Shown piece by piece: positions 7,346 to 17,433 of a stretch of DNA of 24,000 nt (position 1 is its first letter; each line of letters opens with the position of its first letter). The DNA comes from Candidatus Woesearchaeota archaeon. Lineage in GTDB: Archaea; Nanobdellota; Nanobdellia; Pacearchaeales; UBA284. The notes under the pieces were generated by a model. The model saw only the letters and a list, made by a program, of their open reading frames with translations, did not search any database and was not told where the DNA came from. The position numbers were made by a program, and so were the translations under genes. Location of the stretch: positions 382,570 to 406,569 of the forward strand of contig CAYGZP010000001.1 of NCBI GenBank assembly GCA_964354405.1, read 5' to 3'.

Positions 7346-7540
7346 GTTTTTTAAATTATTCCTTTTTTATTTTAAAGCCCCAGTAATTCTGTTAATCCAA
7401 AAGATTTAACAGAAAAGCTTGGACTACACGCCAATTAATAGAGCTTTTTGTTGTTAATAAAAAGTTATGAAATACAGCTGCAACCATGAGTAGCTTATGC
7501 GAAAATCGAAGCAGCAGTGAAGTTTAGTTAATTGACTATT

Positions 7541-7634
7541 AAAGCGCGCCCTTTACCTCAACAGGTTCGACAACAACAGGGCTGATGCCAACGACAACTA
7601 CAACCTCAACAACAATGCGCGTCTTGTTGAAATA
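7541..7634 (+). ncRNA. DGR template region (TR)
   Basis: Noncoding copy of the VR. In the VR frame it reads KRALYLNRFDNNRADANDNYNLNNNARLVEIV, with 8 AAC codons and 1 AAT codon. The core contains 26 adenines, of which 15 are substituted in the VR. It ends 24 nt before the RT start codon. Confidence 0.9.
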
Positions 7635-7658: not shown

Positions 7659-8678
7659 ATGAAAACTTATAAAAACCTTTATGAAAAGCTGTATTCTTTA
7701 GAAAATTTGATTCTTGCCTGGAAAAGTGCAAGAAAAAGAAAAACAAGAAAAGATTATGTTATTGAATTTGAAAAAGATCTTTTTAAAAATCTAATGGCTT
7801 TGCATTACGAATTGAAAAGCCAGACTTATAGCCCAAAGCCCCTAAAATCTTTTATAATAAGAGACCCTAAAACCCGCAGAATTTCAAAATCTGCTTTTCG
7901 TGATAGAATTGTTCACCATGCCTTATGCAATATCATTGAGCCAATATTATCTAAATCTTTCATATATGACAGCTATGCAAATAGAAAAAGGAAAGGAACA
8001 CACAAAGCAATACAAAGATTTGACTTGTTTAAGAGAAAAGTCTCAAGAAATAACACAAAAGCGTGTTTTGTATTAAAAGCAGACATAAAACATTATTTTC
8101 AGGAAGTCAGCCATAAAATTTTATTAAACATAATAGGCAGAAAAATAAAAGATGGAAAAGTTTTGTGGCTTATTAAAAAGATTTTAAACAACCATGAGAC
8201 AAGCAAATCTGACAAGGGCATGCCTTTAGGCAATCTGACATCTCAGTTCTTCGCAAATGTTTATTTAAATGAGCTTGATAATTTTGCTAAAAGAAATTTG
8301 GGGGTAAAATATTATATAAGATACGTTGACGATATTGCTATATTTTCAAATTCTGAGAAAGAATTAAAATGTATTTTAATAAAAATAGAATCCTTTTTGA
8401 AATCTGAACTTGATTTAAAAGTTCATGAAGACAAGTCCAGAATAAAATTAATACATTCTGGAATAAAAATGTTGGGCTATAGAATTTTCTACTACTATAA
8501 ATTATTAAGAAAGAGTAATTTAAGGAAATTCAAGAAGAATTTTACAGAAAAATTAAGTTTGTTAGAAAGTGGAATAATCTGTAAAGAAGAGTTGCTTTTA
8601 AGTTTGAACGGATGGTTTGGATATGCAAAATGGGCAGATACTTATAAGTTAAGAAAAGAAATAATCAATCAAATCTAA
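7659..8678 (+). CDS. DGR-type reverse transcriptase
   Basis: 339 aa. N-terminal LENLILAWKSARKRKTRK, then FRDRIVHHAL and DSYANRKRKGTHKA. PLGNLTSQFFANVYLNELD (8229-8246 encodes GNLTSQ) is the DGR-typical xGxxxSQ motif rather than the group II QGxxxSP. Catalytic YVDD is at 8322-8333. There is no maturase or endonuclease tail. Confidence 0.9.
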   Translation: MKTYKNLYEKLYSLENLILAWKSARKRKTRKDYVIEFEKDLFKNLMALHYELKSQTYSPKPLKSFIIRDPKTRRISKSAFRDRIVHHALCNIIEPILSKSFIYDSYANRKRKGTHKAIQRFDLFKRKVSRNNTKACFVLKADIKHYFQEVSHKILLNIIGRKIKDGKVLWLIKKILNNHETSKSDKGMPLGNLTSQFFANVYLNELDNFAKRNLGVKYYIRYVDDIAIFSNSEKELKCILIKIESFLKSELDLKVHEDKSRIKLIHSGIKMLGYRIFYYYKLLRKSNLRKFKKNFTEKLSLLESGIICKEELLLSLNGWFGYAKWADTYKLRKEIINQI

Positions 8679-8687
8679 ATCTAATGC

Positions 8688-9365
8688 TCAGAACTCCCCA
8701 AGCTTTTTCTGCCCGGGTTTTCTGTTCGCTGTCTTCCATGTCGCCCATGATTTTCTTATCAATCCTATCTTTGCGAGTTCTTTAGCTTTGTCAGTTTTCA
8801 GGAACTTAACGCATAGAGGATCAGAAGGATAGCCGCTCCCGCAATCAACATCATATTTTTTTCTTATCTTATCCATTTCATCATCTCTCGTGACTTTTGC
8901 CAAGATGCTCGCGGCTGAACAGACAGGATGATTAACATCAGCTTTATGCTCGCATTTCAAAACAATTTTATCTACATTATTCACATGAGACAAGACATAA
9001 TTTCTCCATGCCATGATATTATTTGAAGGGCAGTCGATAATGACTTCAACTTTGCTTGGAATATTTTTTGTCAGGACATTGATTATCTCTGCTGATTTGA
9101 GAGCTTCAATCTTATTCAGATTGATTTTCTGTCCTAAGAGCGAGTCAATCTCGCTTGCTGTTGATTTCAGGGTGATATGCGCACCAACAATCTTTTTGAT
9201 TTCTCTCGCAAGAAACTCGCGGCGTTGTGGTGTGAGAAGTTTAGAATCTTTTACTTTGATGAGCTTTAACTTGGCTTCCTGTTTCTCGTCTACTAACACA
9301 CCTGCAAGAATCATCGGCCCGATAACAGGTCCGCGCCCAGCATCATCAATTCCAATTCGTAACAT
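8688..9365 (-). CDS. rnhB: Ribonuclease HII
   Basis: MLRIGIDDAGRGPVIGPMILAGV (DDAGRG active-site motif), then CEHKAD and DCGSGYPSD. The C-terminal QKKLGEF is PIP-box-like. Confidence 0.9.
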   Translation of the reverse strand: MLRIGIDDAGRGPVIGPMILAGVLVDEKQEAKLKLIKVKDSKLLTPQRREFLAREIKKIVGAHITLKSTASEIDSLLGQKINLNKIEALKSAEIINVLTKNIPSKVEVIIDCPSNNIMAWRNYVLSHVNNVDKIVLKCEHKADVNHPVCSAASILAKVTRDDEMDKIRKKYDVDCGSGYPSDPLCVKFLKTDKAKELAKIGLIRKSWATWKTANRKPGQKKLGEF

Positions 9366-9391
9366 GTTACTTGTCCCCTTATTTTGAAAAG

Positions 9392-9496
9392 TAGCGGGGG
9401 TGGGATTTGAACCACACGACCTCGAGGTTATGGGCCTCGCGAGCTAACCAGGCTGCTTTGGGCAACACTTTTTTGTTTTAGTGTTTCCACCCCGCT
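9392..9496 (-). tRNA. tRNA-Met(CAU), initiator-like (A1:U72), with a 29-nt D-arm intron
   Basis: The minus strand has acceptor AGCGGGG/CCCCGCU and discriminator A. The anticodon stem is CGAGG/CCUCG and the loop is CCCAUAA, with the anticodon at 9430-9432. The T-arm is GUG(U)GG-UUCAAAU-CCCAC, with one bulged U. Removing 9458-9486 restores the D-arm GAGC-AGCCUGGUUA-GCUC and gives a 76-nt tRNA. CCA is not encoded. Confidence 0.8.
9458..9486 (-). other. Predicted noncanonical tRNA intron (between positions 10 and 11), bulge-helix-bulge-like
   Basis: The intron is AAACACUAAAACAAAAAAGUGUUGCCCAA. The internal helix is AACAC/GUGUU. The 4-bp helix GGGU (exon)/GCCC (intron 3' end) is flanked by the 3-nt bulges GG|A and AA|A, which contain the inferred junctions. 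That 4-bp helix uses acceptor-stem nucleotides, so it would compete with acceptor pairing. Confidence 0.55.
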
Positions 9497-9497
9497 A
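9486..9497 (-). repeat. Direct repeat copy 2 (TAGCGGGGTGGA): HEG stop codon plus tRNA-Met nt 1-11
   Basis: Exact 12-bp match to 10043-10054. Confidence 0.9.
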
Positions 9498-10037
9498 GGA
9501 TAGCATCCCCGCTTTTATAGAAATATGTTTTATACTTTTAAACTTAACTGAAATAAAGAGATTATATGACGGTAATTTATCCTTAATTGATATGGATTTT
9601 CTCCTTATAGAAGAATTAATCCCCAAAGAATTTAATTCTTTATTCAAAAATTTTATCAATTTAAAATCTGTATTTACTACTTCTATAAAATTCTTCTTCC
9701 TATTTACATATCCTTCTGCATCTATAACTCCCGAAATAAATCCCAATATTTCCTCTTTTTTTAAATTGAGTTTATTTATATCTTTATCAAATAATCCAAA
9801 AAATTCTTTATTTACAACTCTCAATCTTAAACAATTGAATCTTTTATCTTTATAATAATGAATATTATATCCCGCCTTCTTTAATATAGAAACAAGAAAT
9901 TCAATTATCTTTTTGTCATTTACAGAATTTAAATAAAATTCCACATAGTACTTTCTATATTTTTTATCATGATATTTATAACCATCTCCTATAAATAACC
10001 CTTTCAAATATCCAAATTCCTCTTTTGTTATGTTCAT
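9495..10037 (-). CDS. LAGLIDADG homing endonuclease (double-motif, I-DmoI-like size)
   Basis: 180 aa. Motif 1 is LKGLFIGDGY and motif 2 is ILGFISGVIDAEGY. The gene is very AT-rich relative to its neighbours. Its TAG stop overlaps nt 1-2 of tRNA-Met. Confidence 0.85.
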   Translation of the reverse strand: MNITKEEFGYLKGLFIGDGYKYHDKKYRKYYVEFYLNSVNDKKIIEFLVSILKKAGYNIHYYKDKRFNCLRLRVVNKEFFGLFDKDINKLNLKKEEILGFISGVIDAEGYVNRKKNFIEVVNTDFKLIKFLNKELNSLGINSSIRRKSISIKDKLPSYNLFISVKFKSIKHISIKAGMLS

Positions 10038-10042
10038 TTTTC

Positions 10043-10054
10043 TCCACCCCGCTA
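10043..10054 (-). repeat. Direct repeat copy 1 (TAGCGGGGTGGA): duplicated tRNA-Met 5' end upstream of the HEG
   Basis: Exact 12-bp match to 9486-9497. It lies 5 nt upstream of the HEG ATG and about 28 nt downstream of a TATA box. Confidence 0.9.
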
Positions 10055-10077
10055 TCTGGGATATAGACGATAAAGAC

Positions 10078-10085
10078 TTTTAAAT
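10078..10085 (-). promoter_or_regulatory. TATA box driving repeat copy 1, the HEG and tRNA-Met (possibly rnhB as well)
   Basis: The minus strand reads ATTTAAAA, centred about 28 nt upstream of the A of AGCGGGG in copy 1. No comparable element lies upstream of copy 2. Confidence 0.5.
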
Positions 10086-10109
10086 CTAATGGAAAACCTC
10101 TATAAAAAA

Positions 10110-10183
10110 TGGGGCTGCCCGGATTCGAACCGGGGCCGCGAGTGCCCTAGACTCGTATACTAACCAAGCTATACTACAACCCC
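10110..10183 (-). tRNA. tRNA, apparent anticodon AGG (Pro)
   Basis: 74 nt. The acceptor is GGGGUUG/CAGCCCC with discriminator A. The D-arm is GUAU-AGCUUGGUUA-GUAU. The anticodon stem is CGAGU/ACUCG and the loop is CUAGGGC (U33, G37). The T-arm is CCCGG-UUCGAAU-CCGGG. The anticodon complement CCT is at 10146-10148. Confidence 0.75.
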
Positions 10184-10197
10184 TTGAGAATATTAGT

Positions 10198-10221
10198 AAA
10201 AAGTTATTTAAAATCCTTTTT
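10198..10221. promoter_or_regulatory. Quasi-palindromic bidirectional TATA/BRE-like element between divergent tRNAs
   Basis: AAAAAG-TTA-TTTAAAA-TC-CTTTTT; 18 of 24 positions are self-complementary. The TATA centre (about 10210) is 27 nt from tRNA nt 1 at 10183 (minus strand) and 26 nt from tRNA nt 1 at 10236 (plus strand). Confidence 0.5.
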
Positions 10222-10235
10222 CTTTGTCAGCTCAA

Positions 10236-10317
10236 GCCGCGATGGCCCAATGGTAAGGCGCAAGGTTGCTAACCTTGTTTCCGAAAGGATATCTGGGTTC
10301 AATTCCCAGTCGCGGCG
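10236..10317 (+). tRNA. tRNA-Ser(GCU), class II
   Basis: The acceptor is GCCGCGA/UCGCGGC with discriminator G. The anticodon stem is CAAGG/CCUUG and the loop is UUGCUAA, with the anticodon at 10268-10270. It has a 15-nt variable arm. The T-arm is CUGGG-UUCAAUU-CCCAG. A T6 run follows at 10318-10323. Confidence 0.9.
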
Positions 10318-10379
10318 TTTTTTCATTTTTTCTTGCACATTCTCGCAACCTTTTTAAATCTCCTTTTTCTTAGACTGTA

Positions 10380-11243
10380 ATGCCAAGAAAAAAGAAAACT
10401 GAAGGAACTGAAGAAGCGAAAATAGAAGAAAAAATCGAAGAAGTAGTAGAAGAAAGCGAGGAAGTAGTAGAGGAGAAACCAAAGAAAGAGAAGAAAGAAG
10501 AGAGCGAAGAGGTAAAGCAAAAGCAAGAGGTTCTTCTGGCTCCGCTTGAAGATTATATCAAGGCAGCTGTTCATCTCGGAACTCGCGCCATTACTCCAGA
10601 TATGAGACAGTATGTTTACAGGAGAAAAGCAGATGGTGTCGCTGTTCTAAACACAAAAAAGATTGATGAAAAGATTGCAGTCGCCGCGAACTTCTTAGCA
10701 AATTACGAGCCGAAAGATATACTTGTGTGCTGCAAGAGAGAGATGGGCTACAAATCTCTTGAGGCTTTTCACGAGGCTCTTGGAGTGAGAATATTCACAA
10801 GATATCCAGCAGGCATTATAACTAACTCGGATTTGGAGAATTTTTTCGAGCCAAAATGCCTTTTCATTGTTGATCCATGGCTTGACAAGAATGCGCTACA
10901 CGATGCCACAAGAATGGGCATTCCAGTTGTCGCGTTATGCGACACGAATAATATGACAACTAATATCGACTTAGTCGTTCCTTGCAATAACAAAGCAGCC
11001 AAGAGCGTTGGCCTGATATTATATTTGATTGCAAAATTATACTTGCAAAAGCGCGGAGACAAGAAAAAACTTAATCCCCGCGATTTCTATGAAGTTGAAG
11101 AAGCGCAAGAGCAAAAGTACAAAGAAAAACCAGAGAGAAAAAAATTGAGTGAAGAGATTCTAAAAAGGATAAGTATAATTGAAGATAAGATAGAAACAAA
11201 AAAAGAGAGGAAAAAGAAAGAAGACACGACGGCCTCAGCCTAA
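10380..11243 (+). CDS. rps2: 30S ribosomal protein uS2 with K/E-rich N- and C-terminal extensions
   Basis: The core LLAPLEDYIKAAVHLGTR...ADGVAVLNTKKIDEKI...FIVDPWLDKNALHDATRMGIPVVALCDTNN...VVPCNNKAAKSVGLILYLIA matches archaeal/eukaryotic S2. A TATA box (TTTTTAAAT) lies about 26 nt upstream. Confidence 0.9.
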   Translation: MPRKKKTEGTEEAKIEEKIEEVVEESEEVVEEKPKKEKKEESEEVKQKQEVLLAPLEDYIKAAVHLGTRAITPDMRQYVYRRKADGVAVLNTKKIDEKIAVAANFLANYEPKDILVCCKREMGYKSLEAFHEALGVRIFTRYPAGIITNSDLENFFEPKCLFIVDPWLDKNALHDATRMGIPVVALCDTNNMTTNIDLVVPCNNKAAKSVGLILYLIAKLYLQKRGDKKKLNPRDFYEVEEAQEQKYKEKPERKKLSEEILKRISIIEDKIETKKERKKKEDTTASA

Positions 11244-11253
11244 GCTGCGAGGA

Positions 11254-11262
11254 TTTTTAAAT
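11254..11262 (+). promoter_or_regulatory. TATA box positioned for the tRNA 5' fragment and tRNA-Thr transcript
   Basis: TTTTTAAAT, centred about 26 nt upstream of G1 of the fragment at 11285. Confidence 0.45.
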
Positions 11263-11284
11263 TTCTTTTGTTTATTAATAACAT

Positions 11285-11305
11285 GCCTCGGTAGCTCAAT
11301 GGCAG
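11285..11305 (+). other. tRNA 5' fragment (acceptor 5' strand, D-stem, D-loop); partner of 12420-12454
   Basis: GCCTCGG-TA-GCTC-AATGGCA-G. GCCTCGG is a perfect 7/7 complement of CCGAGGC at 12447-12453. tRNA-like sequence stops after G21 (GATATT follows), and tRNA-Thr starts at 11312. Confidence 0.65.
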
Positions 11306-11311
11306 GATATT

Positions 11312-11384
11312 GCCCCTATAGCTCAGGTGGAAGAGCACCATCCTCGTAAGATGGGGGTCCCGGGTTCGAAACCCGGTAGGGGCT
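11312..11384 (+). tRNA. tRNA-Thr(CGU)
   Basis: The acceptor is GCCCCTA/TAGGGGC with discriminator T. The D-arm is GCTC-AGGTGGAA-GAGC. The anticodon stem is CCATC/GATGG and the loop is CTCGTAA, with the anticodon at 11345-11347. The T-arm is CCGGG-TTCGAAA-CCCGG. Confidence 0.92.
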
Positions 11385-11385
11385 C

Positions 11386-11392
11386 TTTTTTT
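11386..11392 (+). terminator. Oligo-T archaeal terminator after tRNA-Thr
   Basis: A T7 run starts 2 nt after the tRNA 3' end. Confidence 0.5.
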
Positions 11393-11423
11393 ATGTGTAG
11401 ACCTAATAGCACAAAACACAATA

Positions 11424-11431
11424 TTTAAATA
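11424..11431 (+). promoter_or_regulatory. TATA box for the second LAGLIDADG gene (leaderless spacing)
   Basis: TTTAAATA, centred about 26 nt upstream of the ATG at 11453. Confidence 0.5.
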
Positions 11432-11452
11432 GAAACATTTCTTATATTAGGA

Positions 11453-12418
11453 ATGTATAGAATATTCTTTATAAATACCAAGGATTGTGCCGAATTTTTT
11501 GAAGAAGCAAGGAGAAATTTAGAAGTTAAAAGCTGGAAAAAACTAGGGGAAAGTATAGGAACTAATAAATCGATGATAGATAATTATAGAAAGGGAAGAT
11601 TATGTATTCCTGAAGATAAATTTAATACATTATTAAATCAATTAACTGAAAATAGAAAACAATATTTTTTGAGATTAATCGAAAAGAGAAATAGTAACTG
11701 GGGGCAAATAATAGGGGGTAAAAAAGCATATAATATAAATAAAAGGGCATTTGATATTGGAAGAAAAAATAGATTAAATCAGGTCAAATATAATTTTGAT
11801 ATCCATATTGATCTTTCAGAAGAATTGTGTGAATTTATTGGGGCATTTATTGGAGATGGTTTTACAAACAAATATAGATATTTATATCAAACACAAATAA
11901 CTGGAGATAATGTTTTAGATTCAGACTATTATTACAATAGACTAAAACCTCTTTGTGAAAAATTGTTTAAAATATCTCCTAAAATTACACAAAAGGAAGG
12001 ATGGATAAGATTAAATATATACTCAAAAAGGATGTTTGAATTGTTGACAAAAAGATTTAATTTTCCTGCTGGAAAGAAATCCTCTTCTGTTTGTATTCCT
12101 TCAGAGATCTATAATGGAAAAGAAAAATTACTTAATTCTACCTTAAAAGGAATGTTTGATACTGATGGGGGGATTGGTATTGATAAAAGAAAAGCCTATA
12201 CTGTACCTTACATAAGAATAAATTATACTTCTAGTTGTATAAAGTTGATAAAACAAGTGCACGCTATCTTATTAAAATATTCTATTAGTCATTCAATTCA
12301 TAGAAAAGAAAAAACATTTATGATCCAGATTAATGGTAAAAAGAATGTTAAGATGTTTTTATCAAAAATAGGATTTTCCAATAAAAGACATTTGGATAAA
12401 ATTAGAAGATTTTTATAA
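11453..12418 (+). CDS. LAGLIDADG homing endonuclease with about 130-aa N-terminal extension
   Basis: 321 aa. Motif 1 is LCEFIGAFIGDGF and motif 2 is LKGMFDTDGGIG. The sequence is unrelated to the 9495-10037 endonuclease outside these motifs. The gene is very AT-rich. Confidence 0.85.
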   Translation: MYRIFFINTKDCAEFFEEARRNLEVKSWKKLGESIGTNKSMIDNYRKGRLCIPEDKFNTLLNQLTENRKQYFLRLIEKRNSNWGQIIGGKKAYNINKRAFDIGRKNRLNQVKYNFDIHIDLSEELCEFIGAFIGDGFTNKYRYLYQTQITGDNVLDSDYYYNRLKPLCEKLFKISPKITQKEGWIRLNIYSKRMFELLTKRFNFPAGKKSSSVCIPSEIYNGKEKLLNSTLKGMFDTDGGIGIDKRKAYTVPYIRINYTSSCIKLIKQVHAILLKYSISHSIHRKEKTFMIQINGKKNVKMFLSKIGFSNKRHLDKIRRFL

Positions 12419-12419
12419 A

Positions 12420-12454
12420 AGCAAGGGTTGAGGGTTCAAATCCCTTCCGAGGCT
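12420..12454 (+). other. tRNA 3' fragment (AGCA, variable region, T-arm, acceptor 3' strand, discriminator U)
   Basis: AGCA-AGGGTT-GAGGG-TTCAAAT-CCCTT-CCGAGGC-T, followed by a T-run to 12460. AGCA would complete the D-stem of the 11285 fragment (GCTC...G+AGC). I found no anticodon arm. Confidence 0.65.
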
Positions 12455-12519
12455 TTTTTTAATTATTTTTACTTAGAAAAGATTTTTATATAATTAAAAC
12501 CTATCAAAGAAGGGCTAAG

Positions 12520-12900
12520 ATGGAAACGACTGATTTGTGGGACTTTAGAAAAATGAAGGAAGAATGGCGTAAAGAAGAAATGAAAGAACTATCTAAGCAA
12601 AATGCACAGAATACAAGTGCAATGGCTATACAACTTGAGAGACAAACGATTATGCAGGATGAAATAACTAAAATTCAAACACAACAAACGAAGCTTACAA
12701 GGGCATTAGTTCTTTTTACTGGATTTTTGGTTGCAGCAACGATAATAGCTGCTGGAATGAATTATGCTGTTGTTCTTCGTGCCGCAAAGATGCTAACTAC
12801 TGCAGATAGTATAGCGCTTATAACTGCTACAATAGGGATTATAATATTATTAGTAGGAAGTTATCAACTTTTGATTAGATATGGAAACAAAAAGATTTAA
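12520..12900 (+). CDS. Hypothetical membrane protein (coiled-coil N-terminus, 2 TM helices)
   Basis: 126-aa ORF and the first gene of a same-strand, AT-rich cluster. Confidence 0.5.
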   Translation: METTDLWDFRKMKEEWRKEEMKELSKQNAQNTSAMAIQLERQTIMQDEITKIQTQQTKLTRALVLFTGFLVAATIIAAGMNYAVVLRAAKMLTTADSIALITATIGIIILLVGSYQLLIRYGNKKI

Positions 12901-12912
12901 AGAATAGATAAA

Positions 12913-13128
12913 ATGGGATTTTGCGAATGGTTATGTGGTTGGGAAAAAATAGAATATATACCTAACTGGCTTGAAAGAGCGTTTGGAAAGGCATTTAATA
13001 GAGCGGGATACAATCATAGATATTATTTTAGAGGAAAAACATTTAGATATCAGGCAGTTGTAACTAATCCTAAATATCAAGGACATATACCTGTAACTTT
13101 TTATAAAAAACTTAGGAAGAAAAAATGA
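12913..13128 (+). CDS. Hypothetical small basic protein
   Basis: 71 aa. Its stop overlaps the next start (ATGA at 13125-13128). Confidence 0.45.
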   Translation: MGFCEWLCGWEKIEYIPNWLERAFGKAFNRAGYNHRYYFRGKTFRYQAVVTNPKYQGHIPVTFYKKLRKKK

Positions 13129-13310
13129 AAAAACCTATATCAAAGGAAGAATTAAAGGAAATTGTTCAGGACTCCATAAAAGAAGTGCAAAGACAACAAG
13201 TAAAAGAGGCTCTAAAAATTGGAGCTTATTGTGTTTATTCTTCGAAAGAATTAAAAGAACTCGGTTTTACACCAAAAGAAATTAAACAAATAAAAGAGAG
13301 GAGAAAATGA
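13125..13310 (+). CDS. Hypothetical small K/E-rich helical protein
   Basis: 61 aa, with ATGA overlaps at both ends. Confidence 0.45.
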   Translation: MKKPISKEELKEIVQDSIKEVQRQQVKEALKIGAYCVYSSKELKELGFTPKEIKQIKERRK

Positions 13311-13525
13311 AGTGGCGATACGTAATAGGAACTCTTGCATGGTTAGCAGGGATATATGGATTGAAAGGTACAAGATTTGGAGATGAACAAAATATAGCTT
13401 CCTGGCTTCTTATTGTTGTTGGTATCTTACTTATATTTTGGAATTCATCATATAAAACAATCGGGAATATAGCCTATAAAATTAGAGATTTCTTTAAGAA
13501 AATATGGAAATGTTTTCAAAAATGA
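13307..13525 (+). CDS. Hypothetical small membrane protein (2 TM helices)
   Basis: 72 aa, with an ATGA overlap to the previous gene. Confidence 0.45.
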   Translation: MKWRYVIGTLAWLAGIYGLKGTRFGDEQNIASWLLIVVGILLIFWNSSYKTIGNIAYKIRDFFKKIWKCFQK

Positions 13526-13929
13526 AAAAGAAAATATGGGATTTATTTAAGAAGAGAAAAGGTAGAGATATTGGGTTCTTCATTCATATAGAAAATAAAA
13601 TTCCTTATACGGAAAGAAGAGAAAAAGTTGGAAATTATATAAAGGATTTAATTAATCAATTTTATGAACATGTTGCTGTTCAATACTTTCATGAAGGAAA
13701 AGAGAACTGTTTAACAGGTGTAAGGGTTGTTGGTGGTAATGCTAGGTTTAAGTATAGTGAACAGGAACAAATTGTTAGGCACATTTTATATAAATTAACT
13801 ATATTCTTTATTAATAATAAAATAAAGTTTGATGAAAATTCAATAGAGTTCTATACTCCTCAACCCTTTAAGGAAGAAGTAACAAAATTCGCTATGGAGA
13901 CGGCAGAAGCAATCTCTAAGAAAAAATAA
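13522..13929 (+). CDS. Hypothetical protein
   Basis: I prefer the start at 13522 (MKKKIWDLF...) because it forms a third ATGA stop/start overlap (13522-13525). The track start at 13504 is also possible. Confidence 0.45.
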   Translation: MKKKIWDLFKKRKGRDIGFFIHIENKIPYTERREKVGNYIKDLINQFYEHVAVQYFHEGKENCLTGVRVVGGNARFKYSEQEQIVRHILYKLTIFFINNKIKFDENSIEFYTPQPFKEEVTKFAMETAEAISKKK

Positions 13930-13999
13930 GTCAATTTCCTAGATTGAAGAAGTCTTAAAGAAGAAAAAGGTTTAAATCTTATAATTTGCTTGGTTTAAT

Positions 14000-14500
14000 A
14001 TGGATTGGGCTATATTGTTATATATTCTTTTCATTATAAGTTGTATTATTCTATACATTTTCTATTGTAGAAAACTGGTTAAGATAGCTAAGGATTTGGG
14101 AATAAAAGATAACCTTTGGTTAATATATATTCCTTTTGTCCAAAATTATTTGATTTCAAAAATGGCAGATTTCCCCCTATGGACATTTATAATTTCTCTA
14201 TTCTTTTTTATGCCCTTTGTAAATCTAATTGGTTACTTTTGGTATTATAAAATAGTTAAGAAATATGATGATAGTGGTTTGTGGTGTTTAGCCTTTTGGA
14301 TATGGGTGTTTAGTATGGACTTAAAAGAAGAAAGGAAATTAAGAGTAAAAGAAGAAAAGGAAAGAATAGAATATTATCAAAAAAATAAAAAGTTGATTGA
14401 AAAGAAAGAAGATAATGATTTTCGTAGATTTCTAAAATGGGGAGCGATAATATTGGGGTTTTTAATTCTTTTAGCAATCATTAAAAAAATACTTGGGTAA
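14000..14500 (+). CDS. Hypothetical multi-pass membrane protein
   Basis: 166 aa with about 4 hydrophobic helices and a K/E-rich loop. GGTTTAAATC lies about 26 nt upstream. Confidence 0.5.
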   Translation: MDWAILLYILFIISCIILYIFYCRKLVKIAKDLGIKDNLWLIYIPFVQNYLISKMADFPLWTFIISLFFFMPFVNLIGYFWYYKIVKKYDDSGLWCLAFWIWVFSMDLKEERKLRVKEEKERIEYYQKNKKLIEKKEDNDFRRFLKWGAIILGFLILLAIIKKILG

Positions 14501-14550
14501 TAAAAAAGCAAGAAAGAAGAAAAAATGAATTATGTTGAAGATTAGATAAA

Positions 14551-14844
14551 ATGGCAAAAGATAAGAATAATATTAAAAATGCACTTGTAATCTTTGTTCT
14601 AGTTCTAGCTGGTTTAGCTCTTTTTGGGTTTTCAGCAAGACAAATTGATATAATCGCTCAATGGGGCATTTCGATAATTATTGGAATGATTTTAGGTGTT
14701 TTATCTGGACAGATTGTTGAAACATTCACAGGAGATATTCTTAAAAAAATATCTCTTTCCTTTGAGATTAGGGGCATCGATTTTTCAATAACTTTATTTG
14801 TGATAGTTGCTTTTCTTGTAAAACTAATTATATTTGGATTGTAA
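14551..14844 (+). CDS. Hypothetical membrane protein (3 TM helices)
   Basis: 97-aa hydrophobic ORF. Confidence 0.45.
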   Translation: MAKDKNNIKNALVIFVLVLAGLALFGFSARQIDIIAQWGISIIIGMILGVLSGQIVETFTGDILKKISLSFEIRGIDFSITLFVIVAFLVKLIIFGL

Positions 14845-14870
14845 AAAAGTTCTGAAACAAAAATTGGAAA

Positions 14871-15167
14871 ATGAGAATAAAAGTTAAAAAAGTTAAAAGT
14901 GTTTTTGGAAAAGCAACAGGTTTAATGTTTTCTAAACCTCACAATTTAATATTTATCTTCAAGGACGAGAGAAAAAGAAGCTTACATATGCTTTTTGTTT
15001 TCTTTTCTATAGATGTTTTGTTCCTTGATTCAAAAAAGAAAGTTGTTGAGCGAGCAACATTAAAACCTTTCTCTCTCTATACATCAAAGAAAAAAGCGCG
15101 ATATGTCATAGAATTAAGAAAAGGACAAGCGAAAAAAATCAAAATTGGCGCGAAAATAGAATTTTAA
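14871..15167 (+). CDS. DUF192-family protein
   Basis: GKATGLMFSK...LIFIF...HMLFVFFSIDVLFLDSKKKVVE...ARYVIELRKGQAKKIKIGAKIEF follows the DUF192/COG1430 pattern (GLM...f.f...w M...pLD..F.d..g.V......a.yvLEl..G......G). Confidence 0.6.
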   Translation: MRIKVKKVKSVFGKATGLMFSKPHNLIFIFKDERKRSLHMLFVFFSIDVLFLDSKKKVVERATLKPFSLYTSKKKARYVIELRKGQAKKIKIGAKIEF

Positions 15168-15677
15168 TTATTTCTTGTTTCCTTTCTGAAAGCTTAGGAA
15201 ATCGCCCAAATTTTCATCTTTGCTTTCAAGAATCTTGCCACTGAAACAGTCGACATGTAATCTTAGGATTTTCAGGCAATCCATCAGACAAGTTACATTC
15301 CACAGCTGAACATTTTTTATTTTCTGCAGCACAGCAAATATCTTGTTTATGTTGAATTCTGTAAGCGATTTCTTCTTGATATCGCCCTCAATTATCTTCT
15401 TCAATTTCTCAATATCAATCTTAATTTTCTCATCTAACGCACTCAGCTCGCTTTTTGAGTCAATTTTGTCTGTCTTCTGCTCAACTCCATCATCGTTTAC
15501 AAGAAATGTTGCAACTTTATTTTTATTGATGCTGTAATCCAGCTGCTGTGTTTCAACCTCGAGTTTAGAATTAAGCATAAAGAAAGCGCTGAACAAGAAA
15601 GCACTTTTGTTCTTTGCCTTGAAATGTTTGAATTCCTTGCTGCCTCGCAGAATTTTCAAAGAATTTTGAAATGACAT
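15168..15677 (-). CDS. Hypothetical protein
   Basis: 169-aa ORF with no recognised motif. It lies between DUF192 and thrS. Confidence 0.45.
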   Translation of the reverse strand: MSFQNSLKILRGSKEFKHFKAKNKSAFLFSAFFMLNSKLEVETQQLDYSINKNKVATFLVNDDGVEQKTDKIDSKSELSALDEKIKIDIEKLKKIIEGDIKKKSLTEFNINKIFAVLQKIKNVQLWNVTCLMDCLKILRLHVDCFSGKILESKDENLGDFLSFQKGNKK

Positions 15678-15711
15678 TATGATATTTTAAGATATGAAAA
15701 ACCTCTGTTCT

Positions 15712-17433
15712 CTACAGTTCTCGCTTTTCAATTTTTTCTTTAATTTCTTTTATAAATTTCTCTAGCTTGACTCCGAACTCTGGTTTCTTGCCTCTTGCGC
15801 GCACAGCTAAAGTCCCTTGCTTCTCTTCTTTATCACCTATGACAATTATGTAAGGGATTTTTTGGATTAAATCAGCCTCACGCACTTTATAATCAACTGT
15901 GCTGTCCTTGAAATCAGAGTCAACTCTCAAGCCTTCTTTCTCCAGAGCTTTCACAATTTTTTCAGCTGCTTTCACATTTCTCTCTGTGAATGACAAGACG
16001 CGTACTTGTACTGGAGCAAGCCATATAGGCAGATTACCATTCAAATGCTCAAGCAACACCCCTATAAAGCGCTCTATCGAACCATATATTGCCCTGTGAA
16101 GCATGATTGGCCTCTGTTTTTGATTATTCTCATCAGTATAAGTCAAATCAAACCGCTCTGGCATTGCGAAATCGAGTTGGATTGTAGCGCACTGCCACAT
16201 CCTTCCAAGAGAATCTTTCATTGAGTAATCTATCTTCGGTCCGTAAAATGCGCCAGCTCCTTTGCTCAATTTGAACTTAATCTTGTTTTTCTTCAGAACT
16301 TTTTCCAATATTTTCTCGCCCTTGTCCCACATCTCATCGCTTCCAATCCTTTTCTCAGGCTTCAAGGATAATTCAATGCTTATTTCGAACTTGAATGGTT
16401 TGTAAAGTATATTTATCAATTCTATAACTTTTTCTATCTCGCTTTCGATTTGTTTTTCTGTGCAATAAACATGTGCATCGTCTTGTGTGAATTGAATAAC
16501 TCGGAACAATCCTCCTAAAACTCCGCTAAGCTCTTGTCTATGAACAGTTCCCAGTTCGCCAACCCGCAAAGGCAATTCTTTATAGCTTCTCGGCCGGGTT
16601 TTGTAAACGAGAATGCCTCCTGGACAGTTCATCGGCTTTACTACAAAATCTCTATCTTCATATTTTGTCAAGAAAATACTCTCGCGATACTTTTCCCAGT
16701 GTCCTGAAATCTTCCATAATCGCGAGTCCATGATTTGTGGAGTAGAGATTTCCTGATAGCCCGCTTTCTGATGCTCCTCGCGCCAGAATTTCAAAAGTTC
16801 TTGATAAATTATCCACCCGTTCTTGTGCCAGAACACCATCCCTGGCGCGACTTCATTGAATGAGAATAAATCTAATCTCTGTCCAATGATTCTATGATCA
16901 TTCTCTTTTAGCTTGCTTGTGTCAAGTTGAGTTTTAGAAATCTGGTTCAAAAGTTGTTTGTAATCATATTTTTCTTCCTTTGCCACAATCTTGTTCTTTT
17001 CTTCTGCTTTTCCTTCTGCGCCGAACTGTCGCGAGAGCTCGCTCAATGGATGTCCTTTGCATTTAAGCTCGAATTCTTTATACCATCCAAAAGGCGCTCT
17101 TGTAACAGAAAATTTTTCCTTGATGAGAGCTTTTTCGCCTTCTTCCAAGACTTCCAGCGCGCTCGCCGGCTTTGAAGGTGAGTTAGTTAAATGGACATAA
17201 GGATATAACACTATAGTTTTGCATTTGACTTGTGACGCGATGTCCTTGATATTATTCACAAGTTCCTTTGCTATAGCAGTCTCGTGCCCTTCATCCTGCT
17301 TCTCGACAGCGCTCAAGACAACTAAGCACTCTTTGACAACATGCTCTTTGGCAGCGATGTCTTCAGGCTCCTTGAGTGCTTTCTTGACTGGCTTGAACTT
17401 TATGTAGTCGCAATGCAGAGTCAATATTTTCAT
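15712..17433 (-). CDS. thrS: Threonyl-tRNA synthetase (archaeal type with N-terminal editing domain)
   Basis: MKILTLHCDYIKFKPVKKALKEPE is an archaeal editing-domain start. The class II core shows FWHKNGWIIYQELLKFWREEHQKAGYQEISTPQI, HRQELSGVLGGLFRVIQFTQDDAHVYC and YGPKIDY...QCATIQLDF. A C-terminal anticodon-binding domain follows. GAGGAG lies upstream of the ATG. Confidence 0.93.
   Translation of the reverse strand: MKILTLHCDYIKFKPVKKALKEPEDIAAKEHVVKECLVVLSAVEKQDEGHETAIAKELVNNIKDIASQVKCKTIVLYPYVHLTNSPSKPASALEVLEEGEKALIKEKFSVTRAPFGWYKEFELKCKGHPLSELSRQFGAEGKAEEKNKIVAKEEKYDYKQLLNQISKTQLDTSKLKENDHRIIGQRLDLFSFNEVAPGMVFWHKNGWIIYQELLKFWREEHQKAGYQEISTPQIMDSRLWKISGHWEKYRESIFLTKYEDRDFVVKPMNCPGGILVYKTRPRSYKELPLRVGELGTVHRQELSGVLGGLFRVIQFTQDDAHVYCTEKQIESEIEKVIELINILYKPFKFEISIELSLKPEKRIGSDEMWDKGEKILEKVLKKNKIKFKLSKGAGAFYGPKIDYSMKDSLGRMWQCATIQLDFAMPERFDLTYTDENNQKQRPIMLHRAIYGSIERFIGVLLEHLNGNLPIWLAPVQVRVLSFTERNVKAAEKIVKALEKEGLRVDSDFKDSTVDYKVREADLIQKIPYIIVIGDKEEKQGTLAVRARGKKPEFGVKLEKFIKEIKEKIEKREL

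Follow-up and report, generated by a model that had tools for sequence, protein, structure and literature searches.

A probable homing-endonuclease cassette that carries a replacement tRNA-Thr(CGU) inside a broken tRNA-Thr(CGU) gene of a Woesearchaeota archaeon

We analyzed a 24,000-nucleotide stretch (the window) from a Candidatus Woesearchaeota genome, a 51-contig MAG of 833,623 bp. With a probability of roughly 85%, a free-standing homing-endonuclease cassette has lodged in the resident tRNA-Thr(CGU) gene of this genome, bringing with it a whole replacement tRNA-Thr(CGU). The preliminary description, made from the letters of the window, had listed such a cassette of tRNA-Thr plus endonuclease with its own replacement tRNA as one of three explanations for two separated tRNA pieces, and it was borne out by an empty site in congeners, by the foreign character of the inner tRNA, and by the presence of the cassette with different stubs elsewhere.

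All features given in that description, namely the two pieces, the inner tRNA, the ORF, the TATA-like boxes, and the T-runs, were found where it had placed them, on the + strand. The resident tRNA-Thr promoter is represented by a TATA-like box (11254..11262, read directly) located 23 nt upstream of the 5' stub. The corresponding GGATTTTTAAATTTCT block is also found upstream of the intact tRNA in the same-genus genome G001 and upstream of the stub in L043, a Logan contig from another sample, and the promoter region is identical between the window and L043 at 36 of 41 positions. The 5' stub (11285..11305, read directly as GCCTCGGTAGCTCAATGGCAG) aligns with nt 1 to about 21/22 of the intact resident alleles and comprises the acceptor 5' strand, the D-stem 5' strand, the D-loop, and G22. 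It is followed by a GATATT filler (11306..11311), a non-homologous join at the left junction that lacks a counterpart in the intact alleles and varies between loci (GTTCAT in L043, TTA in one contig of run X1). The inner tRNA-Thr(CGU) (11312..11384) is complete, as identified by ARAGORN and by a full-model Rfam tRNA match of 61.6 bits, and the T7 run behind it (11386..11392, read directly) is likely, from its letters, an archaeal terminator. The cassette spacer (11393..11452) contains the TATA box of the endonuclease gene, TTTAAATA, at 11424-11431; homologous cassettes whose proteins are 51-82% identical keep the motif CTAATAG(C/T)ACA(A/G)AAACA..TTTAAATA in the stretch that separates the tRNA from the endonuclease gene.

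The endonuclease gene (11453..12418) ends with a TAA stop codon at 12416-12418, which abuts the edge of the displaced anticodon loop. The 3' stub (12419..12454) corresponds to about nt 37/38-73 of the resident gene by alignment to G001 and a second same-genus genome, G002, and its positions 12420-12454 read directly as AGCAAGGGTT-GAGGG-TTCAAAT-CCCTT-CCGAGGC-T. It includes A38, a decayed 3' anticodon-stem strand GCAAG, a variable loop that is 1 nt short, the T-arm, the acceptor 3' strand, and U73, and it runs into the resident tRNA terminator T-run (12454..12460, read directly), which now lies 3' of the endonuclease gene. The acceptor strands of the two stubs pair at 7/7 positions. Between the stubs, an insert of 1,113 bp takes the place of ~14 nt (about nt 23-36) from the D-stem 3' strand and the anticodon arm of the resident gene.

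The ancestral state of the locus was assessed by comparison with the congeners. Both G001 and G002 carry an intact 72-nt tRNA-Thr(CGU) at the syntenic site directly after rps2, the resident site being located between rps2 and the ThrRS neighbourhood. Both stubs align to this one gene (BLAST E 1e-10 and 1e-7; G001, G002), and 14 nt separate the two stub-matching ends in the intact genes. The 5' stub is identical to the G001 and G002 genes at 20 of 21 positions, and the T-arm plus acceptor of the 3' stub is identical to G002 at 24 of 25; as a sequence match, this is far above chance. By synteny, an intact tRNA-Thr(CGU) directly after rps2 is the ancestral state and, by alignment, the outer pieces are the ends of that gene. 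The site is thus polymorphic for presence and absence, a sign of mobility: the cassette occupies it in the window genome and L043, whereas G001 and G002 have the empty site with its intact tRNA. An Rfam search of 9300-12600 at a relaxed threshold, covering the possibility that the outer pieces are parts of other RNAs, produced no match that accounts for them.

The alignments also bear on how much of the resident gene was lost. The AGC before the 3' piece had been proposed to complete the D-stem, which is probably a coincidence: by alignment, AGCA (12420-12423) corresponds to A38-G39-C40-A41, which belong to the anticodon loop and 3' stem of the resident gene, and G001, G002, and L043 have TAA-GCAGG at this place. 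The 3' stub of L043 keeps GCAGG, whereas the window has the decayed GCAAG. Since the 3' stub starts in the anticodon loop, a single replacement of ~14 nt explains the locus, and a separate deletion of the anticodon arm is not needed. Of the suggestion that the pieces are a recombination scar, one part stands, in that the stubs are the scar of the insertion; in any other sense it fails.

The product of the 321-aa ORF (P0001) was described beforehand as a LAGLIDADG protein, and this assignment is confirmed by a Pfam LAGLIDADG_3 match (39.4 bits, cut-off 22.5), accompanied by a weak N-terminal HTH_19 match. Two LAGLIDADG motifs, LCEFIGAFIGDGF (D135) and LKGMFDTDGG (D238), each end in a catalytic acidic residue; among 40 homologues, D135 never varies and the conservation of D238 reaches at least 90%. 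The AlphaFold model has a mean pLDDT of 92.1 and contains the duplicated alpha-beta-beta-alpha-beta-beta-alpha fold. Foldseek matched its C-terminal ~200 aa to I-DmoI (target TM 0.75, E 2e-9), to the Tli VMA intein endonuclease (E 1e-9), and to I-Tsp061I. Based on its motifs and modelled fold, P0001 is a monomeric two-motif LAGLIDADG homing endonuclease with an N-terminal HTH domain, encoded by an intact gene. It also looks functional, given the conserved Asp pair, the I-DmoI-like fold of the model, and a smaller number of changes relative to L043 at the first two codon positions than at the third (90/89/75% identity at positions 1/2/3).

The inner tRNA-Thr(CGU) is identical to the resident allele of G002 at 51 of 73 positions (70%), against 66 of 72 between the G001 and G002 alleles, and its best match, at 91%, is the tRNA-Thr(CGU) of G019, a genome of another genus; by these identities it is foreign to the genus. 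It differs from the resident at 8 of the 27 positions that make up the D-stem 3' strand, the anticodon arm, and the variable loop. The assembly contains all three Thr isoacceptors, contrary to the possibility that one is missing, and the inner gene is the sole copy with the CGU anticodon. In the presumed target region, only 5 of 27 positions separate the resident CGU allele from the genome's own tRNA-Thr(UGU), which is intact. Splicing of the 5' half of the inner tRNA to the outer 3' stub was considered and rejected because the acceptors GCCCCTA and CCGAGGC do not pair.

Related loci were retrieved when an alignment of homologues was used as the query, whereas the single protein as query retrieved none. 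L043 has the same nested layout with an endonuclease that is 82% identical in amino acid sequence, equal to the 82% observed for rps2, and contigs of run X1 also carry the nested layout with a 5' stub. In L128, where the endonuclease is 68% identical, the inner acceptor TAGGGGC is the same and the 3' stub is different; L048, with other genes around it, has a stub of its own. At seven loci an invariant inner acceptor, GCTTCCG/CGGAAGC, is combined with four different stub acceptors. In the closest clade, tRNA-Thr(CGU) ends 35-71 nt upstream of the endonuclease at 14 of 18 loci, and a strict stub of T-arm, acceptor, and U73 occurs within 60 nt past the stop codon at 12 of 18, in 11 of these 12 cases within 5-22 nt; about three further stubs are decayed and visible by eye. 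Across 80 homologous DPANN loci, a tRNA lies within 150 nt of the endonuclease at 54 and is tRNA-Thr at 45, compared to a background of 26 of 438 ORFs (6%) with a nearby tRNA in the window genome. Many homologous loci retain a displaced 3' stub and some a 5' stub, and at other cassette loci the 5' stub is gone and the 3' stub persists. Similar nested stubs surround units of endonuclease with tRNA-Thr(GGU), Gln, Val, or Arg, and the endonuclease family as a whole has more than 300 homologues with Thr, Gln, Val, Arg, Phe, and other tRNA partners. A search of sequencing runs revealed related sequence in one DNA run only (as Logan contigs) and in no RNA run; the matched DNA run contained same-layout relatives, not the window strain, and no empty-site joint.

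The following course of events would account for the locus. The endonuclease would recognise and cut the anticodon-arm region of resident-type tRNA-Thr genes, and the break would be repaired from incoming cassette-bearing DNA. On the right side, the resident 3' half and the 3' stub of the donor itself would provide the homology for repair, which would explain the precise junction in the anticodon loop. The left end would be resected by ~13 nt and then joined non-homologously just upstream of the donor tRNA. The resident TATA box at 11254-11262 now probably drives transcription of the foreign tRNA, from which the 27-nt stub plus filler would be removed by RNase P as a 5' leader; the endonuclease gene would use its own promoter and the resident terminator. 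With 8 of 27 positions different from the resident, the foreign tRNA is presumed to be uncut, so that the cassette would destroy the resident gene yet rescue its function. The putative target site and the presumed immunity of the inner tRNA are read from the positions of the junctions. With rps2 and the endonuclease each 82% identical in amino acid sequence between the window genome and L043, the insertion is probably older than the split of these two lineages, and for this reason current mobility in the window lineage is not evident. Other points against the cassette model are the non-homologous left junction, which textbook homing would not leave; a conservation of the stubs between the window and L043 that plain debris would not predict; the intact state of tRNA-Thr(UGU), close to the resident in the presumed target; and the fragmented state of the genome, a 51-contig MAG.

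The stubs of the window and L043 are identical at 52 of 55 positions, above the 75% identity at third codon positions, and several cassette tRNAs have an intron exactly at the insertion junction. These two observations motivate a bolder and rather unlikely reading, in which the stubs are working parts of the element and such cassettes are a main source of tRNA fragments, splits, and introns in DPANN archaea. Under this reading, the 5' stub may be a promoter-proximal leader of the spare tRNA, and the 3' stub (T-arm, acceptor strand, and T-run) may provide the endonuclease mRNA with its 3' end or a processing signal and also act as a homology arm when the element homes again. On a wider scale, LAGLIDADG cassettes that replace tRNA genes may feed orphan tRNA fragments, split tRNA genes, and anticodon-loop introns in DPANN archaea, with anticodon-loop introns possibly being immunity patches.

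Among explanations other than the cassette, a tandem duplication of tRNA-Thr(CGU), followed by entry of an endonuclease into one copy, decay, and divergence in place, would require no mobile cassette. An intact and a broken copy of one isoacceptor side by side would be expected from it, and the insertion is old enough to be common to the window and L043. We nevertheless consider it very improbable: the intact copy is nested within the broken one rather than adjacent to it; it is 70% identical to the genus allele and 91% identical to that of another genus; its acceptor stem differs from the stubs on both strands; and the same inner tRNA type accompanies related endonucleases beside unrelated stubs in unrelated neighbourhoods.

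The preliminary description had also raised a split or tri-split tRNA, in which the outer pieces, made as separate transcripts or within a single long precursor, would be joined with an anticodon-arm piece encoded elsewhere. Consistent with this are the 7/7 acceptor strands and the perfect T-arm, a promoter-like box ahead of each piece, the conservation of the stubs beyond that of third codon positions in the comparison with L043, and the many tRNA introns spliced in the window genome. The anticodon-arm piece itself has no candidate in the whole 833,623-bp assembly: neither a hairpin that combines a CGU loop with a stem complementary to GCAAG nor a copy of the missing AGCATCTGCTTCGT is present, and a search of all 51 contigs for fuzzy AGCATCTGCTTCGTAAGCAGG and for 5-bp hairpins with a YTCGTRN loop returned the inner tRNA and unrelated hairpins only. 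No complementarity that could form a BHB had been noticed at first, and none is readable at the junctions: direct reading of GATATTGCCCC after the 5' piece against AGATTTTTATAAA before the 3' piece revealed no complementarity, nor is GATATT... after 11305 complementary to ...TTTTTATAAA before 12419. In addition, a complete CGU gene lies 6 nt away and supplies this anticodon among the three Thr isoacceptors, the gene is in one piece in congeners, and cassette loci without a 5' stub elsewhere still hold the 3' stub. The split-tRNA proposal is, in our view, hardly credible.

A comparably slim chance is given to the cassette being the end of a larger virus or plasmid (11306 to about 15167) that entered through an integrase, with the 3' piece as an att remnant. 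The element would include the AT-rich 2.7-kb operon 3' of the cassette. tRNA genes are classic integration sites, GC content falls to 27-31% over 11,000-15,000, and the 2.7-kb block directly after the 3' stub is absent from G001, G002, and L043. In L043, the nested cassette is complete and the 2.7-kb block is absent, so the cassette and the block are two separate events. Moreover, 12520-15167 contains neither an integrase nor a Pfam or PHROG mobile-element domain (a PHROGs scan of the block gave zero matches), no recombinase domain was found in 11306-15167, and no direct repeat of tRNA sequence flanks the region: a search for att-like repeats around 11200-15800 gave AT-rich chance matches only, and the pieces are complementary halves, not att-type repeats. 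Finally, an intron-encoded endonuclease was rejected because the flanking exons are 14 nt short of a full tRNA, and Rfam searches for group I/II introns found none, either in the window (gathering level) or in 9300-12600 (E<=5). In contrast, the tRNA-Asn gene of contig C2 does contain a true group I intron, which carries an HNH ORF.

The nearest known cases to the cassette are fungal mitochondrial mORFs, T4 SegB, and a tRNA-Thr insertion in Caldiarchaeum. The mORFs, described in atp6 of Allomyces macrogynus and in atp6, atp9, cox2, and nad3 of Glomus, are free-standing LAGLIDADG ORFs inside a gene that come with a foreign copy of the displaced gene part, and the native part remains downstream as a remnant closer to relatives than the inserted copy is (PMC3630166). 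The window has the same order of gene or replacement, endonuclease, and displaced native 3' end, with a foreign copy beside the endonuclease (70% to the genus allele) and a native part displaced but kept (20/21, 24/25). In contrast, the mORF targets are mitochondrial protein-coding genes, and the foreign segment is only a C-terminus read in frame, whereas the window has an archaeal chromosomal tRNA target, a whole supplied tRNA gene, a 5' stub as well, and an extra N-terminal HTH; because of this target, the likeness is one of mechanism, not of family membership. T4 SegB is a free-standing homing endonuclease in a tRNA gene cluster that cuts the endonuclease-less allele in the tRNA region, and its gene is co-inherited with flanking tRNAs by intron-less homing (PMC2330249). 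It resembles the window in adjoining tRNA genes, but it is a GIY-YIG phage enzyme without a broken resident tRNA around a nested replacement.

The tRNA-Thr(GGU) locus of Caldiarchaeum subterraneum contains a 5' tRNA-Thr fragment and a ~1.9-kb, single-ORF insertion that directly abuts a complete tRNA-Thr of the same strand; the insertion is polymorphic in the natural population, a second copy adjoins tRNA-Thr(CGU), and tRNA-Thr was seemingly a specific target (Sugahara et al., 2012, PMC3293823). The authors interpreted the ORF as a DNA recombinase, took the event for a pNOB8-type integration or transposition, and named no endonuclease family (PMC3293823). The likeness of this insertion to the cassette is one of layout, and the layout fits the GGU-type loci (stub, endonuclease, tRNA) rather than the order in the window (tRNA, endonuclease, stub). 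A review of recently split tRNAs attributes the splits to mobile elements targeting tRNA genes (PMC3218864). Like the split and tri-split tRNAs of Nanoarchaeum equitans and Caldivirga maquilingensis, the window has separated archaeal tRNA pieces with matching acceptor strands; unlike them, it has an incomplete tRNA, no complementary flanks, and a complete gene with the same anticodon. Among enzymes, the closest solved folds and sequences to the C-terminal ~200 aa of P0001 are I-DmoI, I-Tsp061I, PI-PfuI, and the Tli VMA intein. The I-DmoI group likewise consists of archaeal monomeric two-motif enzymes, but these are housed in spliced-out bulge-helix-bulge introns or in inteins, whereas the cassette locus has no splicing, exons that fall short of a tRNA, and a cost offset by a spare gene.

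Homing endonucleases usually spare their host by residing in a self-splicing intron or an intein. The cassette described here would represent a third solution, suited to tRNA genes, in which the resident gene is broken and a complete, presumably uncuttable spare is carried along; in effect, it would be a natural cleave-and-rescue element. The cassette offers a testable origin for the orphan tRNA halves, split tRNAs, and odd introns that small archaeal genomes commonly contain. It also carries a warning for annotation, as tRNA halves with perfect acceptor complementarity can be scars. Since the large endonuclease family is paired with different tRNAs, it would constitute a pool of LAGLIDADG enzymes whose natural targets are related yet differ from one another.

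A DNA search of the window against 40 related genomes identified the outer tRNA pieces. Two genomes of the same genus, G001 and G002, match the window from the rps2 end across the 5' piece (11285-11305, 21 nt by direct reading) up to 11305, and the match restarts at 12419, next to the 3' piece (12420-12454, 35 nt by direct reading); between the two matches the relative has only 14 nt. The synteny comparison called for by the preliminary description thus revealed a single intact 72-nt tRNA-Thr(CGU) at the same site, immediately after rps2 (tRNA-Ser(GCU), rps2, tRNA-Thr in G002), and the two stubs are identical to the G002 gene at 20/21 and 24/25 positions. Based on these flanking matches, we concluded that the outer pieces are, as judged by alignment, both ends of this genus's resident tRNA-Thr(CGU) gene. 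Between them lie a complete tRNA-Thr(CGU) (11312-11384; ARAGORN, Rfam tRNA 61.6 bits) and a 321-aa endonuclease ORF (11453-12418; Pfam LAGLIDADG_3 and a weak HTH_19 match). All these features, together with two TATA-like boxes and two T-runs seen by direct reading, were found where the preliminary description had placed them. The source genome is archaeal (834 kb in 51 contigs), with the window at C1:382570-406569. Homologues of the endonuclease carry labels from within DPANN: Pacearchaeota, Woesearchaeota or Nanoarchaeota.

The junctions were read against the intact alleles, GAGCA-TCTGC-TTCGTAA-GCAGG-(T/C)GGTT followed by the T-arm, where the window has ...GGCAG / GATATT-(inner tRNA)...TTA-TAA-AA-GCAAG-GGTT-GAGGG... 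An independent Logan contig from another sample, L043, is nested in the same way at this rps2 to ThrRS locus; its endonuclease is 82% identical to that of the window, and its right junction retains TAA-AATG-GCAGG-GGTT. The AGCA previously taken for the 3' strand of the D-stem fits better, in the alignment of relatives, as A38 followed by the decayed anticodon-stem nucleotides G39-C40-A41. With this reading, one replacement of resident nucleotides ~23-36 by 1,113 bp would account for the locus, and a second deletion is unnecessary. The right junction is fixed in the anticodon loop, and the left one is variable.

The inner tRNA is identical to the resident G002 allele at only 51/73 positions, compared with 66/72 between G001 and G002, and both strands of its acceptor stem are unlike the stubs, with G1-C72, C2-G71, C3-G70 and U73 retained. 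Its best match (91%) is the stand-alone tRNA-Thr(CGU) of G019, a genome of another genus in the same family. An in-place duplication of tRNA-Thr would leave both the nesting and the foreign type of this copy unexplained. The foreign inner tRNA and the empty allele in congeners bear out the earlier suggestion of a tRNA gene destroyed by a tRNA-Thr and endonuclease cassette that brings its own replacement. An inventory of isoacceptors confirmed that Thr(CGU), Thr(UGU) and Thr(GGU) are all encoded, the CGU anticodon by the inner gene only. Another option raised earlier, that the outer pieces form a working split or tri-split tRNA, does not hold on three points that define such tRNAs: the genome-wide search for an anticodon-arm piece found no middle piece in the assembly, the flanks of the pieces are not complementary on direct reading, and an uninterrupted gene with this anticodon exists. 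In G019 (L002 ~1606-1645), an inverted tRNA-Thr-like 3' fragment, GCAGG-TTCAATC-CCTGT-CAGAGGC-T, lies ~55 nt upstream of the stand-alone tRNA-Thr(CGU) and could be a scar left by a previous cassette.

Acidic residues are present in both LAGLIDADG motifs of the endonuclease; of the 40 homologues compared, all share D135 and at least 90% share D238. The predicted structure is confident (pLDDT 92): its C-terminal ~200 residues match I-DmoI (target TM 0.75) and archaeal intein endonucleases in fold, and the N-terminal ~110 residues form an additional helical, HTH-like domain. Identities to the L043 gene of 90/89/75% at codon positions 1/2/3 point to purifying selection. The spacer between tRNA and endonuclease gene has its TATA box within a motif conserved among cassettes of 51-82% protein identity. 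Since 8/27 positions of the presumed target differ between the inner tRNA and the resident allele, the spare is probably immune. The tRNA-Thr(UGU) of this genome is similar to the resident CGU allele (5/27 differences in the presumed target) and is intact, suggesting that the endonuclease either discriminates finely or is no longer active in this genome.

More than 300 endonuclease homologues were found, and 80 loci from named DPANN genomes were analysed with the endonuclease gene set to the plus strand. A tRNA lies within 150 nt in 54/80 loci, tRNA-Thr in 45 of these, against a background of 26/438 ORFs (≥200 aa) in the source genome. In the close clade (endonuclease ≥48% identical to that of the window, 18 loci), a tRNA-Thr(CGU) ends 35-71 nt before the start codon in 14 loci, and a strict T-arm, acceptor and U73 fragment occurs ≤60 nt past the stop codon in 12, at 5-22 nt in 11 of those; about three further 3' fragments are decayed yet recognisable by eye. 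At the commonest stop-to-T-stem distance, the TAA stop coincides exactly with U36-A37-A38 in the anticodon loop that was displaced. Further 5' stubs occur in L043, L058, L061, L077 and contigs of X1, the only sequencing run found, which is of DNA. A distant GGU-type clade and its relatives beside Gln, Val and Arg tRNAs have the order 5' stub, promoter, endonuclease gene, complete tRNA and often 3' stub, the ORF ending within the first 10-25 nt of the complete tRNA. Locus L128 (endonuclease 68% identical) shares the inner acceptor of the window and has a different stub, L048 holds the tRNA, endonuclease and stub unit in an unrelated gene neighbourhood, and one inner acceptor stem is common to seven loci whose stub acceptors are of four different kinds. 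These patterns indicate that the inner tRNA is part of the cassette and the stubs are of host origin. In L059, L063, L066 and L070, the tRNA-Thr(CGU) upstream of the endonuclease gene has an intron in or beside the anticodon loop (in L059, ...CTCGTA[tctttagtgagtga]AGCGG...), exactly at the insertion-junction position; such an intron might keep the spare tRNA gene from being cut.

The observed empty and occupied alleles, foreign inner tRNA and intact, conserved endonuclease gene can be set beside a homing mechanism. The endonuclease would cleave the anticodon arm of resident-type tRNA-Thr genes, and break repair would copy the cassette from a donor, whose own 3' stub would pair with the resident 3' half. 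The left end would undergo resection and then non-homologous joining at a point 6 nt upstream of the donor tRNA, leaving the 5' stub. The resident promoter (36/41 conserved in L043) would then drive the spare tRNA with the stub as leader, and the resident terminator would end the endonuclease mRNA. The rps2 of the window is 82% identical to that of L043, 78% to G001 and 64% to G002; the simplest history would be a single insertion in the ancestor shared by the source genome and L043, once G001 had diverged. The stubs (11285-11305 and 12419-12454) are 52/55 identical to L043, compared with 75% at third codon positions of the endonuclease gene, 74% in the spacer and 50% in the 6-nt filler (binomial P = 1.6e-4 at a 25% divergence rate). 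By this measure the stubs change more slowly than neutral proxies, which plain debris does not predict. A role as leader, terminator or homology arm may constrain them, or functional alleles may renew them each time homing recurs.

Other features were noted in the window and elsewhere. An AT-rich 2.7-kb block (12461-15167, 27-30% GC) with eight small ORFs, all on one strand, separates the T-run of the 3' stub from a 169-aa gene (15168-15677); G001, G002 and L043 are without it, and there the tRNA end abuts the 169-aa gene. The block had no Pfam mobile-element domains (DUF192 only, in the last ORF), PHROG matches or flanking repeats, and represents a further insertion at the tRNA locus, distinct from the cassette. 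L043 carries the cassette and lacks the block, contradicting a single large integrated element that takes in both, and no recombinase or att repeat was found. A direct repeat brackets the first LAGLIDADG gene (9495-10037, minus strand, 180 aa): AGCGGGGTGG, the 5' end of an initiator-type tRNA-Met, is found at 10052-10043 and a second time at 9496-9487, where it overlaps the TAG stop. After ~30 additional nt, the remainder of the tRNA (anticodon CAT, ~9455-9392) follows; it was missed by ARAGORN and scores only 23.1 bits with Rfam. This locus (9392-10085) has the stub, endonuclease, tRNA design of the GGU-type loci with an unrelated, shorter enzyme. At C2:55628-56207 (L130 455-663) of the same genome, a group I intron of 506 nt (RF00028, 79.3 bits) interrupts tRNA-Asn(GUU) between nt 35 and 36 and encodes a ~113-aa HNH-type endonuclease, a third kind of endonuclease-bearing tRNA-gene insert in this 0.83-Mb genome. 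In the window, a tRNA-Pro (10110-10183, minus strand; full-length Rfam match, 56.6 bits) has the anticodon loop CUAGGGC, that is, A34-G35-G36; A34 is unusual for Archaea, in which G34 is expected. A tRNA-Pro(AGG) also directly adjoins one of the endonuclease homologues, in another genome (L112). An Rfam RT-16 RNA (7379-7544, 97.2 bits) directly upstream of a reverse transcriptase gene (RVT_1, 7659-8678) looks like a retroelement unrelated to the tRNA-Thr cassette.

Our literature search found no paper on LAGLIDADG cassettes replacing archaeal tRNA genes. Among the closest parallels are fungal mitochondrial mORFs, in which a LAGLIDADG ORF comes with a foreign gene C-terminus and the native C*-terminus is pushed downstream (PMC3630166), and T4 SegB, located in a phage tRNA cluster (PMC2330249). 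Another is the tRNA-Thr(GGU) of Caldiarchaeum subterraneum, where a polymorphic 1.87-kb insertion left a 5' fragment and an ORF abuts the complete tRNA-Thr, interpreted there as a recombinase or integration event (PMC3293823). The cassette also parallels the proposal of Chan et al. that split tRNAs arise from mobile elements that target tRNA genes (PMC3218864).
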